A stretch of DNA of 64,000 nucleotides from Lachnospiraceae bacterium Phil5 (GTDB taxonomy: Bacteria > Bacillota > Clostridia > TANB77 > CAG-508). Made by a program: the position numbers and the translations under genes. Under the pieces are notes generated by a model. That model was given only the letters and a program-made list of their open reading frames with translations, was not told the DNA's origin and did no database searches. Location of the stretch: assembly GCA_002633185.1 (NCBI GenBank), contig NWBM01000002.1, forward strand, positions 438,832 to 502,831, given 5' to 3'. Of this stretch, positions 91 through 56,297 are shown piece after piece (position 1 is the first letter of the stretch; each line of letters opens with the position of its first letter).

Positions 91-119
91 GACTTTATTG
101 ATTTAAAAGTGTATACTAA
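91..119 (+). promoter_or_regulatory. Candidate sigmaA-type promoter (TTGACT-17nt-TATACT) for ORF 199..624
   Basis: Near-consensus -35 TTGACT (91-96), a 17-nt spacer, and -10 TATACT (114-119). It sits about 80 nt upstream of a strong RBS/ATG. Confidence 0.4.
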
Positions 120-198
120 CACCAATTGCAGTTTTAATAGCTGCTTTTATTGTCCGAATATTCACCATTTTGAAACAACCTTAAGGAGGGAAACAACA

Positions 199-624
199 AT
201 GAAACCAAATGTGTGTGCTTTAATTAGCAAATTCGGTCCAACAAACTACAGTATTGCTATACTGTACGGCAACGCAGAGTCCAGTGACTGTCCTCAAGAA
301 GCTACTGGCATTGTGGATGAAAATGTGGCTTTGCTTGCTTGTGAACTCACTCAGGAGCTTCCTATCCCTGGCGGTGAAACTCGTAATACCACGTTTTTCT
401 ATGACAGCGACACATCAGGATCTCTTCAGAAAGCAGCATCTACCAAACTTACCACGGCAGGCATTCCTAACAACAAGAACATGATTCTTGCATATATGGA
501 CAATGTTAATGCCAAGGTTCTTGCCACTATGCTGAACGAAATACAAGCTGCTGCATTGAAAGCTGGCGGAAAATTTTCGTACTGTGGCATTCATCTTCCG
601 GTAGCTGTTCCTGTATCGAAATGA
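199..624 (+). CDS. Hypothetical protein, compositionally foreign (about 44% GC vs about 27% background)
   Basis: Strong RBS AAGGAGGG at 183-190 with ATG at 199; the track ORF 109..624 carries an unsupported N-terminal extension. GC content is clearly above the surroundings, and the ORF contains an in-frame CCG. A GC hairpin terminator follows. I do not recognise a family. Confidence 0.5.
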   Translation: MKPNVCALISKFGPTNYSIAILYGNAESSDCPQEATGIVDENVALLACELTQELPIPGGETRNTTFFYDSDTSGSLQKAASTKLTTAGIPNNKNMILAYMDNVNAKVLATMLNEIQAAALKAGGKFSYCGIHLPVAVPVSK

Positions 625-630
625 GTCACA

Positions 631-667
631 AAAAAATGCACGTTTTATACGTGCATTTTTTATTTTT
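631..667. terminator. Bidirectional rho-independent terminator
   Basis: A-run, then hairpin TGCACGT-TTTATAC-GTGCA, then T-run. It terminates plus ORF 199..624 and the convergent minus ABC permease. Confidence 0.6.
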
Positions 668-2906: not shown

Positions 2907-2981
2907 TGGTGACCCGTACGGGAATCGAACCCATGATTCGGCCTTGAGAGGGCCGCGTCTTAACCGCTTGACCAACGGGCC
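2907..2981 (-). tRNA. tRNA-Glu (anticodon CUC)
   Basis: Reverse complement folds as a 75-nt cloverleaf: acceptor GGCCCGT/ACGGGTC, T-loop TTCGATT, anticodon stem CGGCC/GGCCG, loop CTCTCAA, 3' CCA encoded. The body is near-identical to Bacillus tRNA-Glu but carries C34 instead of U34. Confidence 0.85.
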
Positions 2982-38791: not shown

Positions 38792-39103
38792 ATGAAAGAT
38801 TTTGTTATGAATAATCAAATTCTATGCAAAACCAATTCTACAGAACACGGAGTTGAGTTTCTCAAGCGGCTGCCTTTAAGAGATGTTTTTAAGGTGACTG
38901 TTGAAAAAGAACGGGCTGTCGGTAGTCCAGCAAAAGTAACCTTCTTTTTTTCTAACGGAGATGTTGTTATGATTCTTGGTGCATTCTCTACAGGATATGA
39001 AGGTTCTTGCGTTTTTGGACTTTACGAGGTGTTAATTGAATGCGGTTTTCACGAAGAAGATGCTCGTAGGGTATTTTCTCCTGGCACTCGACTTGTCTTT
39101 TAA
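38792..39103 (+). CDS. Hypothetical protein, compositionally foreign (higher GC), adjacent to tRNA-Tyr 3' end
   Basis: RBS AAAGGAGAA with ATG at 38792; the track ORF starts 38759. The codon set is GC-enriched and includes an in-frame CGG (Arg), which native genes here lack. A GC-rich terminator follows. Confidence 0.5.
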   Translation: MKDFVMNNQILCKTNSTEHGVEFLKRLPLRDVFKVTVEKERAVGSPAKVTFFFSNGDVVMILGAFSTGYEGSCVFGLYEVLIECGFHEEDARRVFSPGTRLVF

Positions 39104-39111
39104 TAGGCAAA

Positions 39112-39150
39112 GCAAAGCTCCCGCTTTTTGCGGGAGCTTTCATTTGTTTT
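39112..39150. terminator. GC-rich rho-independent terminator (AAAGCTCCCGC-TTTTT-GCGGGAGCTTT)
   Basis: A perfect 11-bp stem followed by a T-rich tract. Confidence 0.6.
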
Positions 39151-52905: not shown

Positions 52906-55296
52906 ATGAAAAAACGTAATGAACTATCTTATAAGGAATTGAAAATGATTTGCAACCCAGACTTATTCAATTTTGAAACAACAGATGAACTCAATAATAT
53001 GACATCTGGAATTGGTCAAGAAAGAGGAATTAAAGCTCTTCAATTTGGTGTAAATGTTGATATTAAAGGCTATAACCTATATTTAGAAGGTCCAACAGGA
53101 GTTGGAAAAACAGTTTATGCTAAAAATTATTTAGATGAAATATCTAAGAAAAAGAAAACTCCAAATGACTGGGTTTATGTTTATAATTTTGATGATCCTA
53201 ATGAGCCTGTTGCAATTTCACTTTCAGCAGGTCAAGGTAAAGAATTTCAAGAAACAATGGATTCTTTCATAAAAGATATACAAGTTGATATTAAAAATAC
53301 CTTCAATAATGATGATTTTGAAAAAGAAAAAGCATTAATTAAAAGTGAATATGAAGAAAAAAGAAATATTTTAATGGAGCAACTTAATAAAAAGTCTGAA
53401 AAATATGGTTTTCAAGTTAAGTCTGCAAAAAACGGTATATATATGATGCCTATGCTTGATGGTAAAACAATTGAGCAAGAAGATTTTGAAAAATTAGATG
53501 ATGAATTAAAACAACAATTTGAAGAAAAATCTGTTATTGTTCAAGAACACATTATTCAAGCTATTGGTGAAATTAAAGAAATTGAAAAACAAACCGAAAA
53601 GAAAATTCAAGAATGGCAATCTAATATTGCTTTACTTACTGTTAACGGACACATTAACTATATTAAATCAAAATTTAAGAGAAATAAAAAGCTTACAAAA
53701 TTCTTAGAAGATGTAAAAAAAGATATATTAAAAAATGTGGATTACTTCTTAGCTGAACCACAACCTGAGCAAGTTCCTCCACCTCCTGGTCCAAGGCCTG
53801 AAATGCCAAAACCATGGCTAAATTATAGAGTTAACTTATTTGTAGATAATAGTAAACAAGAAGGTGCTCCTGTTGTAATGGACTCTAACTACTCTTATCA
53901 CAATATATTTGGAAAACTTGAATATGAAAATTACTATGGTTCATTAAAAACAGATTACACAATGTTAAAACCAGGTTTACTACATGAGGCAAATGGTGGT
54001 TATATTATATTCCAAGCAAGAGATTTAATTGCAAATGGAATTTGTTATGATGCTTTGAAAAAAGCTTTAAGAACTAAAGAATTATTGTTAGAAAATACTG
54101 CAGATCAACGTTCAAGTATGGTTATGGTTTCATTAAAACCTGAGCCTATTCCTCTTGATATTAAAGTTTTATTAGTAGGAAATGAACAAATATATCAAAC
54201 ATTACTTGCATTAGATGAGGATTTCAGAAAATTATTCAAAATAAAAGTAGAATTTGAAGATACTTCTGAAAACAATGTAGAAAACATGGTTAAAATAGCT
54301 GAATTTATTCACACATTCTGTGAACAAGAAGACCTTCCACCTCTTGATAAAACTGCTGTTGCAAAAGTTATGGAATATTCTTCAAGGCTTGCTGATAATC
54401 AGGAAAAACTATCAACAAGATTTAATGACTTATCTCAAATTGTTGCTGAAGCTGCAACTTGGACTAAAATGGATAAAGAAAAAGTTGTTACAGGAGATTA
54501 TATAGATAAAGCTTTGCAAGAACGTGTTGAAAGAATTAAAAAATATGATACAAGATATTTGGAAATGATTAAAGATAATACCCTATTAATTAATACATCT
54601 GGTAGTGAAGTTGGTCAAATTAATGGTTTAACAATTATGAGTATTGGTGATTACTGTTTTGGAAAACCTGCAAAGATTACTGCAAATACTTACACAGGTA
54701 AGTCTGGTATTATAAATATTGAACGTGAAGTTGATTTATCTGGATCTACCCATTCAAAGGGTGTGTATATTCTAAGTGGATATTTAGGAGAAAAATTTGC
54801 ACAAGATATTCCACTTTCCCTTACAGCTAGTATTTGTTTTGAACAATTATATAATGGTGTTGATGGTGATAGTGCTTCAAGTACTGAATTATATGCTATT
54901 TTATCTAGCTTGTCTGGAGTTCCTATTAATCAATCTATTGCTGTTACAGGATCTGTAAATCAAAAAGGTGAAATTCAACCTATTGGTGGTGTTAATGAAA
55001 AGATTGAAGGATTCTTCCAAATTTGCGAAACTCGTGGATTGGATGGTTCTCATGGTGTTATTATTCCTATTCAAAATGTTAAAAATTTGAATTTAAATAA
55101 TAATGTTTTAGATGCAGTTAAAAATAAGAAGTTTCATATTTATGCTATTTCTAGCATTGATGAAGGAATTGAATTATTAACTGGAGTTCCTGCTGGTAAA
55201 CGTGATAGTAATGGCAAATTCCCTGCTGGTAGTATAAATTATTTAGCTTATGAGAAGCTTAAGAAGTATGCAGAGATTAGTAGAAAACATAACTAA
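52906..55296 (+). CDS. Lon-like ATP-dependent protease (COG1067-type: AAA+ module plus C-terminal S16 protease domain)
   Basis: Walker A GPTGVGKT, an S16 Ser motif DGDSASS, and a Lys dyad region. An unusual proline-rich linker PPPGPRPEMPKP is present. It occupies the position usually held by tsaD after tsaE-tsaB-rimI. Confidence 0.8.
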   Translation: MKKRNELSYKELKMICNPDLFNFETTDELNNMTSGIGQERGIKALQFGVNVDIKGYNLYLEGPTGVGKTVYAKNYLDEISKKKKTPNDWVYVYNFDDPNEPVAISLSAGQGKEFQETMDSFIKDIQVDIKNTFNNDDFEKEKALIKSEYEEKRNILMEQLNKKSEKYGFQVKSAKNGIYMMPMLDGKTIEQEDFEKLDDELKQQFEEKSVIVQEHIIQAIGEIKEIEKQTEKKIQEWQSNIALLTVNGHINYIKSKFKRNKKLTKFLEDVKKDILKNVDYFLAEPQPEQVPPPPGPRPEMPKPWLNYRVNLFVDNSKQEGAPVVMDSNYSYHNIFGKLEYENYYGSLKTDYTMLKPGLLHEANGGYIIFQARDLIANGICYDALKKALRTKELLLENTADQRSSMVMVSLKPEPIPLDIKVLLVGNEQIYQTLLALDEDFRKLFKIKVEFEDTSENNVENMVKIAEFIHTFCEQEDLPPLDKTAVAKVMEYSSRLADNQEKLSTRFNDLSQIVAEAATWTKMDKEKVVTGDYIDKALQERVERIKKYDTRYLEMIKDNTLLINTSGSEVGQINGLTIMSIGDYCFGKPAKITANTYTGKSGIINIEREVDLSGSTHSKGVYILSGYLGEKFAQDIPLSLTASICFEQLYNGVDGDSASSTELYAILSSLSGVPINQSIAVTGSVNQKGEIQPIGGVNEKIEGFFQICETRGLDGSHGVIIPIQNVKNLNLNNNVLDAVKNKKFHIYAISSIDEGIELLTGVPAGKRDSNGKFPAGSINYLAYEKLKKYAEISRKHN

Positions 55297-55298
55297 TT

Positions 55299-55327
55299 TT
55301 GACTTTTTTATGTAAATTTGGTATAAT
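55299..55327 (+). promoter_or_regulatory. Consensus sigmaA promoter TTGACT-17-TATAAT
   Basis: Perfect -10 TATAAT (55322-55327) and near-perfect -35 TTGACT (55299-55304) with a 17-nt spacer, about 55 nt upstream of ORF 55384. Confidence 0.5.
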
Positions 55328-55383
55328 TATTGTATAGCTATATGCTATAAATTTATTAAGCCTTAAGTGGCTGGAGGTACCAA

Positions 55384-55656
55384 ATGTATAAGCAGATTTC
55401 ATCACAGTATTTCGAGAACCAGACAGGAAGCACTCATCGGTTTGTTGAAGACGCATTGCAGCACTGCCTTGACGTAATCAACTATGAAAAAGGAACCATC
55501 GTTGGTTCTCCCCTTATGGAGTCATTCCACGATGCATCGTATGGTCGTTACGGCTCTGTCACCGTTATTTATATGGTTGATGCTAAGAACGACGATGTTC
55601 CTTCCAATGAGAACAAAAAAGCATTTATTGATACCTTAAATAACGCATTCAAATAA
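55384..55656 (+). CDS. Hypothetical small protein, compositionally foreign (about 42% GC)
   Basis: RBS GGAGG with ATG at 55384; 90 aa. It contains an in-frame CGG (Arg), absent from native genes here. It has its own promoter and terminator. No family recognised. Confidence 0.5.
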   Translation: MYKQISSQYFENQTGSTHRFVEDALQHCLDVINYEKGTIVGSPLMESFHDASYGRYGSVTVIYMVDAKNDDVPSNENKKAFIDTLNNAFK

Positions 55657-55662
55657 GAATGC

Positions 55663-55698
55663 AAAAAGCAATGGATTTTTTCCATTGCTTTTTATTTT
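55663..55698. terminator. Bidirectional terminator (AGCAATGGA-TTTTTT-TCCATTGCT)
   Basis: An A-run and a T-run flank a perfect 9-bp stem. It serves plus ORF 55384 / lon and the convergent rplS. Confidence 0.6.
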
Positions 55699-55709
55699 TA
55701 TATTTGAAA

Positions 55710-56297
55710 TTATTCAGCGTCTGTTGTTTCTTCAGTTTTTTCTTCACTAGCTGGAGCTTCTTCTGCTGTTTCTTCAGCTACTTCTTCTGCAGCTTCTTCA
55801 ACTGTTTCCTCAGCTTTAACTTCTTCAGCAGCTGGTGTTTCTGCAGCTTCTACAACAGCTTCTTCTACTGGTGCAGCTACTTCTTCTACAACTTCTTCAG
55901 CAGGAGCTTCTGCTAAATCTTCTTTAATAGTAATTTCTTTATCTTCAATTCTTGCTCCTATAGCTTCTTTAGTCTTAGCAGCTTTACCTACTCTATCTCT
56001 TAAATAGAATAATTTAGCTCTTCTTGCTTTACCAACTCTTACTAATTCAACTTTTTCAACCATTGGTGAATGTACTAAGAAAGTTTTTTCAACACCTACA
56101 CCATAAGCAACTCTTCTTACTGTAAATGTAGCGTTAACTCCTCCACCTTGTTTTTTAATTATTATTCCTTCGAATACTTGGATTCTTTCTCTATTACCTT
56201 CCTTAATTCTTTGGTGAACTCTAACAGTATCTCCAACTTTTAAGGCAGGAATTTTATTTTTCATTTGCTCGTGTTCAATAGATTTTATAATATCCAT
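55710..56297 (-). CDS. rplS: 50S ribosomal protein L19 with about 80-aa acidic Ala/Glu/Val-rich C-terminal extension
   Basis: An N-terminal 115 aa canonical L19 ([11 protein letters not shown]...[14 protein letters not shown]), then [42 protein letters not shown].... Confidence 0.9.

Follow-up and report, generated by a model that had tools for sequence, protein, structure and literature searches.

What is a GC-rich gene with its own promoter and terminator doing between two core genes of an AT-rich gut bacterium, and how long has it been there? The question is raised by a window of 64,000 nt (the whole stretch of DNA analysed here: contig NWBM01000002.1, positions 438,832-502,831, assembly GCA_002633185.1, Lachnospiraceae bacterium Phil5), in which an open reading frame (ORF) of 90 amino acids (aa) lies between the Lon-like protease gene lonC and the convergent ribosomal protein gene rplS. 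A first-pass annotation had taken this unit for a recent insertion of a foreign gene. We find instead a genuine monocistronic small-protein gene that was already in the slot when its clade began to radiate and has since been passed down mostly with its host, subject to purifying selection. Its family has not been described before and is present only in metagenome-assembled genomes of one genus-level clade of uncultured gut Clostridia of ~28% GC. On balance we favour the view that the unit is an old accessory small-protein cassette, probably derived from a mobile element and predicted to be highly expressed, in a slot whose content varies.

Promoter-leader module and slot between lonC and rplS

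The complete expression unit that had been described between the lon-like gene and rplS is present with all its listed elements (Table 1). Its promoter, called a textbook sigmaA promoter (TTGACT-17-TATAAT), is indeed near-consensus and has an extended -10 element in addition. Of the 35 promoter-like sites in 7 kb, no other combines an 11/12 match with TG, and the extended promoter pattern is unique in the window, where 0.03 matches are expected by chance; this uniqueness argues that the promoter is more than a chance motif. Across 14 aligned cassettes, the ~100 nt upstream of the ATG are more conserved than the coding sequence (34 invariant columns of ~100). TTGAC, the spacer motif TTTAYRTAAA and TATAAT are invariant, as is the ATAGC/GCTAT stem of the 5' hairpin (14/14 cassettes). 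In the second hairpin (GCC-N6-GGC) the closing pair covaries, being A-U in the window and in the related loci L005 and L094, and U-A in the others. The pattern found in the promoter spacer is confined to these cassettes among 103 loci, and the spacer element may bind a regulator or act through DNA shape. Neither the rest of the window nor ~0.8 Mb of related loci yielded a further copy of the promoter module, and blastn with the promoter-leader matched only generic AT-rich promoters.

A 5' stem-loop followed by a strong Shine-Dalgarno (SD) sequence is a classical Firmicutes design for stabilising mRNA, and the aprE leader cited in PMC3997798 is a stabiliser of this kind. Because of this design, the 5' hairpin of the cassette may likewise stabilise its mRNA. 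The cassette leader is predicted to begin, as such stabilisers do, with a stem-loop at ~+1, and has a strong SD sequence after it on a short leader; the likeness is architectural only, the cassette leader having no sequence relationship to aprE. With its promoter, 5' hairpin, SD-adjacent hairpin, GGAGG and efficient terminator, the unit appears to be built for strong expression. We note that positions 55313-55323 (promoter spacer and -10) are 91% complementary over 11 nt to the start-codon region (55378-55388). The two segments could pair only in read-through transcripts from lonC, and since the complementarity is not kept in L094, it is probably due to chance.

The stop codon of lonC (55294-55296) lies 2 nt ahead of the -35 hexamer with no terminator between them, as the first-pass annotation had noted. 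Read-through into the cassette is therefore expected in this genome. In the relatives L007, L087, L089 and L098, a lonC terminator hairpin is present ahead of the cassette promoter. At the other end, the terminator is predicted on both strands, in line with its description as bidirectional: a G+C-containing stem of 13-14 bp (55662-55694) stands between an A-run and a T-run, and this one terminator serves both the cassette and rplS. The further proposal that the gene had been inserted just upstream of the native terminator does not hold. Within type A the sequence of the stem is conserved, while type B cassettes and relatives with an empty slot carry different hairpins. Since the hairpin follows the cassette type in this way, it is not the native rplS terminator.

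The order lonC-cassette-rplS is seen in L001-L004, L007, L011, L087-L096 and L098-L100, and every homologue with visible flanks adjoins the 3' end of rplS, nearly always directly after lonC. Among 80 species representatives fetched by LonC (69-89% identity), the strict promoter-leader occurs only in L007 and L011; L009 has a divergent form with a different ORF. The gap between lonC and rplS is short and empty in L008, L018, L023, L034, L055, L057, L060 and L084, and is filled by unrelated genes in L028 and L030. A tree of LonC groups the occupied genomes in one clade, which has the empty L018 outside it and the empty L008 nested inside. Consequently, the empty slot of L008 is better read as a loss, and the distribution points to a single gain at the base of the clade with at least one later loss.

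Behind the promoter-leader, the cargo varies. Type A, the form of the window, is found with subtypes in the window's subclade, and type B in L007, L011 and L090-L093. A third type, C, seen in L009, places behind a divergent promoter-leader a GC-rich ORF (MLYADYCDPTKNIYPK...DDDDDDDD) that is unrelated to the family and is truncated by the contig end; its net charge is -16 in 48 residues, and it could encode a DNA-mimic-like protein. Four loci have a tandem second cassette, in which a promoter-leader copy of its own, placed after the first terminator, drives a 149-aa paralogue composed of two domain copies. The family and this paralogue align in hhalign with a probability of 95% (E = 4.6e-8).

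An exact-pattern scan of metagenomes recovered the 41-nt promoter and 5' hairpin arm in two contigs, L101 and L102, of one element. Outside the positions fixed by the search, 11 of 13 positions of this module also match L089. In L101 the 3' arm of the hairpin differs, yet a 7-bp hairpin forms with the same 5' sequence. Behind the module lies a 253-aa ORF with 50% GC in an element of 24% GC, placed between a MobA/VirD2 relaxase gene and a Fic-HTH (helix-turn-helix) gene; the element also encodes a DUF6076 protein. The ORF is unrelated to the 90-aa family, and hypothetical proteins of Faecalibacterium phages and Clostridium (C. botulinum) plasmids are homologous to its C-terminal half. Because the same promoter and 5' hairpin thus drive an unrelated GC-rich ORF on a relaxase- and Fic-bearing element, the cassette is linked to mobile DNA, which suggests that module and GC-rich cargo come from a mobile gene pool.

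Table 1. Positions of the cassette, its flanking genes and related features (window coordinates unless a locus is given).
Feature	Position	Strand	Basis and remarks
lonC, Lon-like protease (796 aa), upstream core gene	52906..55296	+	Pfam LonC_helical, AAA_32, LonB_AAA-LID, Lon_C
-35 hexamer TTGACT	55299..55304	+	promoter scan
Spacer element TTTATGTAAA	55307..55316	+	alignment; family form TTTAYRTAAA; type B has the reverse-complement form TTTACATAAA
Extended -10, TGg TATAAT	55319..55327	+	TG 55319-55320, TATAAT 55322-55327; -35/-10 spacer 17 nt
5'-end mRNA hairpin TATAGC-TATAT-GCTATA	55333..55349	+	begins at ~+1 (predicted), 6 nt past the -10
Second small hairpin AGCC-TTAAGT-GGCT, abutting the SD	55359..55372	+	kept in cassette types A, B and C
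Shine-Dalgarno GGAGG	55373..55377	+	ATG 6 nt downstream
Coding sequence, 90-aa protein, type A of the family	55384..55656	+	ORF call, homologue alignment
Bidirectional intrinsic terminator AAAAAGCAATGGA-loop-TCCATTGCTTTTT + T-run	55662..55700	both strands	terminator prediction
rplS (L19), convergent downstream core gene, constant anchor of the slot	55710..56297	-	Pfam Ribosomal_L19, synteny
Type C cassette	L009 6470-6701		
Tandem second cassettes	L087 1028-1553; L088 746-1271; L098 887-1216; L099 797-1126		
Module and 253-aa ORF on the relaxase element	L101 9396-10250; L102 486-1340	-	module pattern scan

Codon composition and age of the gene

The atypical composition claimed for the ORF was borne out by window-wide GC and codon profiles, with GC content lower than stated (~40%, not 42%). 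The ORF has 40% GC, with a 200-nt peak of 45%, compared with 28.5% for the 56 long ORFs of the window. GC at third codon positions (GC3) is 0.44 versus 0.148 ± 0.045 in native ORFs (z = 6.7), GC1 and GC2 are normal, and the whole excess is confined to synonymous sites; the log-likelihood of the synonymous codons gives z = -5.6. The Arg codon CGG, which had been said to be avoided entirely by native genes, is nearly but not wholly shunned, making up 0.3% of their Arg codons. Every family member shows the same anomaly (GC 0.39-0.46 and GC3 0.35-0.54, with flanks at 0.27-0.33), and in two-fold codon families the synonymous usage is ~50:50, compared with 3-20% GC-ending codons in lonC, rplS, trmD and rpsP. 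The compositional anomaly is therefore a stable family trait.

Several causes of this trait were considered and set aside. The codon bias of highly expressed genes does not fit, as ribosomal-protein genes have below-average GC3 (0.10-0.12). Selection on mRNA structure is not supported by comparison of minimum free energies with synonymous-codon shuffles, which is inconsistent across the family (z = +0.4 for the window copy). Amino-acid content is excluded or unsupported as a cause. A GC3 near 0.45 could come from selection acting on the choice of codons or tRNAs, from a recombination hot spot with biased gene conversion, or from repeated import. We also observe that a tRNA-Glu with anticodon CUC (2907-2981, minus strand), which reads only GAG, is retained in this very AT-rich genome and may bear on the translation of GAG-, CAG- and AAG-rich cassette genes.

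Synonymous divergence (dS) gives the age of the association. Between the window and L094, dS is 0.61 for the cassette and 0.62 for lonC, so that the gene has accompanied its host over at least this span. The nonsynonymous divergence (dN) in the same pair is 0.238 versus 0.024, a protein-level change ~10x faster than that of lonC. Against L087 and L089, the cassette is saturated (dS > 2) despite a lonC dS of 0.65-0.67, similar to that of lonC against L094. The cassette subtypes are thus either older than the species or were exchanged between them.

Would such a gene not simply encode a native housekeeping or stress protein peculiar to the lineage, for instance one associated with the ribosome or LonC, highly expressed, weakly constrained and with no role in conflict? 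Its fixed position by lonC and the rplS-trmD-rimM-rpsP operon, its mostly vertical inheritance under purifying selection, a constitutive-type sigma-A promoter and a weak fold resemblance to bS6, dodecin and ACT-like alpha/beta domains are all in keeping with this. We nevertheless regard it as unlikely. Neither the nested L008 nor any outgroup has the gene, and in L009 an unrelated poly-Asp ORF stands in its place. Its codon usage is opposite to that of ribosomal-protein genes, its dN is ten times that of lonC, its promoter-leader also occurs on a mobilisable element, and the fold matches are not significant.

Recent horizontal insertion into this strain or species of a cassette resembling the accessory "moron" genes of phages or integrative and conjugative elements (ICEs), upstream of a native rplS terminator, fares worse, and we hold it to be decidedly improbable. 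The GC3 deviation, the gene's own promoter and terminator, the empty slots of L008 and the outgroups and the promoter-leader shared with a mobilisable element could all be read in its favour. Comparison of the locus among relatives, however, shows the ORF conserved at the same lonC-rplS position clade-wide with equally raised GC, in at least 11 protein clusters, and with a dS equal to that of lonC against L094; for these reasons the recent-insertion reading is rejected. The empty L008 is nested and better explained by loss. There is no integrase, transposase or phage gene within 10 kb of the unit, where the flanks consist of core genes only (tsaE, tsaB, rimI and lonC on one side; rplS, trmD, rimM, khpA, rpsP and ffh on the other). 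Neither flanking direct repeats nor a target-site duplication were found at the unit, and tblastn and pattern scans recovered no copy in IMG/VR, INPHARED or PLSDB. From the proposal of a foreign, self-contained gene, the autonomous unit, the atypical codons, a real small protein and a link to mobile DNA are retained; what falls is the recent insertion. If so, the composition of a gene can depart strongly from that of its host without recent transfer. This contrasts with the pattern described in PMC11293555, in which the orphan genes of gut bacteria have the same GC as conserved genes and those derived from phages are richer in AT.

Two other orphan ORFs of raised GC stand in the window. At 91-660 (plus strand) lies a second stand-alone GC-rich cassette with TTGACT-17-TATACT (91-119), a leader hairpin GCAG...CTGC, AGGAGG, a 141-aa orphan ORF (199-624, ~45% GC; GC3 0.37 for the longer frame 109-624) and a terminator at ~634-660. 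For the 141-aa ORF, Pfam gave no match and phages and plasmids no homologue; it bears no relation to the 90-aa family. The other, of 103 aa (MKDFVMNNQILCK..., 38792-39103, plus strand; GC ~0.40, GC3 ~0.30), lies beside tRNA-Tyr and tRNA-Met genes and has its own terminator at ~39118-39140; its containing frame has no Pfam match and the ORF no phage homologue. A replication terminus was also considered for the window and rejected, since the local switch in GC skew just mirrors the convergent gene orientation and is not a global extreme of the window.

The neighbouring genes have peculiarities of their own. The 3' part of rplS (55710-55950, minus strand) encodes an Ala/Glu-rich C-terminal extension of ~80 residues with 12-nt periodic repeats, and L19 proteins range from 148 to 225 aa among relatives. 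Further upstream, rimI (52427-52886, plus strand) is split into overlapping 70-aa and 93-aa ORFs, likewise in L001 and L002, while L089 and L091 have a single 148-aa gene; the split may be a frameshift, a pseudogene or an assembly error.

The encoded protein and its relatives

Selection and structure prediction together indicate that the ORF is translated into a real protein. The dN/dS ratio is 0.10-0.42 in all unsaturated homologue pairs, and the length and frame of the ORF are kept across saturated nucleotide divergence. AlphaFold2, run with a nine-sequence alignment, returned a model with a predicted local distance difference test score (pLDDT) of 85.5. The predicted elements are a strand at residues 2-10, a helix at 21-34, strands at 37-39, 44-50 and 54-65 and a helix at 75-88, an order which gives a beta-alpha-beta-beta core; in the shortest members, of 71 aa, the C-terminal helix is missing. 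The product is soluble, mildly acidic and ~85 residues long, with no signal peptide or hydrophobic segment; among members the net charge runs from -6 to +1. It matches no characterised family.

Could the functional product instead be a structured non-coding or dual-function small RNA of ~365 nt, the ORF being a by-product or of secondary importance? In AT-rich genomes a GC-rich island is frequently an RNA gene, the promoter and terminator of the unit are strong, and the transcript as a whole is more stably folded than its dinucleotide shuffles (z = -4.0). That value, however, includes the leader and terminator hairpins. For the coding sequence, compared with synonymous shuffles, the window copy gives z = +0.4 and other members +0.2 to -3.4, an inconsistent signal across the family. 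The region gave only sub-threshold, terminator-like matches to Rfam (Rfam 15) at E <= 1, a search of the whole window at gathering score placed none in the region, and ARAGORN found no tRNA or tmRNA there. Given also the conserved frame and length, a dN/dS well below 1 and the confident protein model, we judge an RNA product very improbable. A spurious ORF or decayed-gene fragment caught between a chance promoter and the rplS terminator is suggested by the short, orphan sequence (a word-indexed search returned only the query), but with a family of conserved ends, fixed GGAGG spacing, purifying selection and a confident fold, and a chance of only ~0.004 per frame for a 90-codon open frame at this composition (base-frequency estimate), it can be dismissed as next to impossible.

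Relatives of the protein emerged only from the more sensitive searches. Where the word-indexed search gave none, scanning all of 1.84 billion representatives with HMMER brought up 4 small homologues with 43-52% identity, and a profile search of 5.8 billion proteins brought the total to 9 clusters, with nothing new after the paralogue was added. The related genomes fetched by LonC contributed two more small ORFs at the same position (L007 and L011), alignable over their full length despite their dissimilarity. The family comprises 11 protein clusters, of divergent types A and B, and the two-domain paralogue. Searches of Pfam, NCBIfam, PADLOC and PHROGs with the protein and the other members gave no consistent match, the isolated sub-threshold matches being DUF7379 (E = 0.21) and phrog_7101 (E = 0.009, one member only). 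A profile search against PDB sequences gave no match. Foldseek reached a best E of 0.17 against PDB (bS6, dodecins, MinE; template-modelling score TM <= 0.47) and 0.025 against BFVD, where the matches were uncharacterised phage proteins and DUF1737-like domains.

Two weak resemblances deserve comment. Dodecin and DUF1737-like proteins, the top but non-significant Foldseek matches, share with the family the order of secondary-structure elements in a 65-residue core. Dodecins bind flavin through Trp. The cassette protein has no Trp, it does not match the Pfam dodecin family (PF07311), its TM is <= 0.47 and its Foldseek E values are 0.2-0.9, with none below 0.17 in PDB; the genome encodes a bona fide dodecin elsewhere. 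The second is a marginal, full-length tblastn match (E = 0.04, 31% identity) to an ORF of a cyanophage that bears the annotation "anti-restriction", with the common pattern ESF-D-YG-Y-TVT. This ORF is itself below the ArdA threshold (18.7 vs 27 bits), and its hhalign alignment to the family, at 40% probability, is not confirmatory. ArdA (PF07275) gave no match at E <= 1 for any of 8 members and was absent from the PDB-sequence and Foldseek matches. The family is also just mildly acidic, and it is the L009 slot variant that is extremely acidic like DNA mimics. We therefore treat the ArdA-like cyanophage match as a lead only.

A cassette reading and its comparison with known systems

The observations can be brought together as follows. 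The module would have been acquired long ago from the mobile gene pool, and the lonC-rplS slot would be a variable cassette site in which a constant promoter-leader precedes type A, type B, the poly-Asp ORF, type A with its tandem paralogue, or nothing. Cargo may have been exchanged by recombination between the conserved leader and the rplS end. The product may be a binding or inhibitor protein abundant in the cytoplasm, of an immunity- or anti-defence-like kind, with a partner that would drive its rapid diversification. Our guess at such a role comes from the fast diversification into types, the tandem paralogues, the replacement by an acidic ORF and the mobile-element link.

Several points weigh against this account. 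The link to mobile DNA is drawn from one element on two contigs. The proposed function has no support from homology, with no significant sequence-family, PDB or Foldseek (PDB, BFVD) match, and in none of 14 contexts does a gene for a toxin, a nuclease or another partner lie next to the cassette. The moron, antitoxin, immunity and anti-defence roles suggested in the first-pass annotation are guesses to which the same negative results apply. The persistent GC3 could reflect repeated import instead of long residence. Homology between types A and B is probable, not proven: hhalign gives a probability of 52% (E = 1.5e-4) and BLASTP alone a non-significant E of 0.19, and the remaining indications are position, leader and length. 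Finally, the short contigs L005 and L097 have different sequence upstream of the promoter with the rplS side constant, so that the lonC side is not strictly constant. The sequence there is of no recognised kind in L005 (1-84), and in L097 (1-440) a minus-strand gene encodes a Glu/Lys-rich protein with a signal peptide; the two contigs may represent left-edge rearrangements or chimeric assemblies.

If the old-cassette account holds, the conserved promoter-leader in front of interchangeable ORFs would be a reusable natural expression module found both in the chromosome and on a mobilisable element. The locus would provide a tractable place to seek conflict-related (immunity or anti-defence) small proteins in Clostridia, and the family itself would be a new one, structurally confident and without known relatives, in abundant uncultured gut bacteria. 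A broader proposal, which we put forward as a long shot, is that the lonC-rplS slot and the relaxase-element locus belong to one undescribed cassette system of low-GC gut Clostridia. Here a portable promoter and stabiliser-leader would serve GC-rich accessory ORFs (immunity- or anti-defence-like) swapped by recombination, their near-unbiased codons being kept by selection for independence from the pool of tRNAs for A/U-ending codons. Were this true, translation of the cargo would be robust, for example, to starvation or to toxins that target tRNA or mRNA.

Compared with known systems, the cassette departs first from those defined by gene pairs or recombinases. Type II toxin-antitoxin modules need a bicistronic pair, whereas the cassette is monocistronic in every context, with lonC, rplS or the paralogue as neighbours, and no known toxin or antitoxin family is matched (Pfam, NCBIfam, PADLOC). 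Integron cassettes differ in that there is no integrase within 10 kb and that the cassettes here carry their own promoter. An anti-CRISPR acr-aca arrangement is not seen either: no gene lies between the ORF and the terminator, and there is no HTH gene in the slot of any relative.

The likeness to prophage or ICE morons is closer, and includes an autonomous promoter-ORF-terminator unit, odd composition, a small protein, variable presence in relatives and a promoter-leader that also occurs on a mobilisable element. Contrary to morons, the cassette is not inside a prophage or ICE; it is flanked by core genes, is fixed in the clade, co-diverges with its host and has no phage or plasmid homologue. 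Polymorphic-toxin systems include orphan immunity genes and arrays of acquired immunity genes with repeated intergenic sequences. The cassette differs from these in having no Imm or antitoxin family match, no adjacent toxin gene (14 contexts), no recombinase and at most two copies in tandem, and in the confinement of its family to the slot. It resembles orphan immunity or antitoxin-like genes in its small cytoplasmic alpha/beta protein, fast diversification and host-unlike composition, in tandem paralogues each with a repeated upstream module, and in strong constitutive-type signals. In sum, this is a new small-protein family within a known general category, and what is unusual about it is its portable promoter-leader and its persistent codon anomaly.

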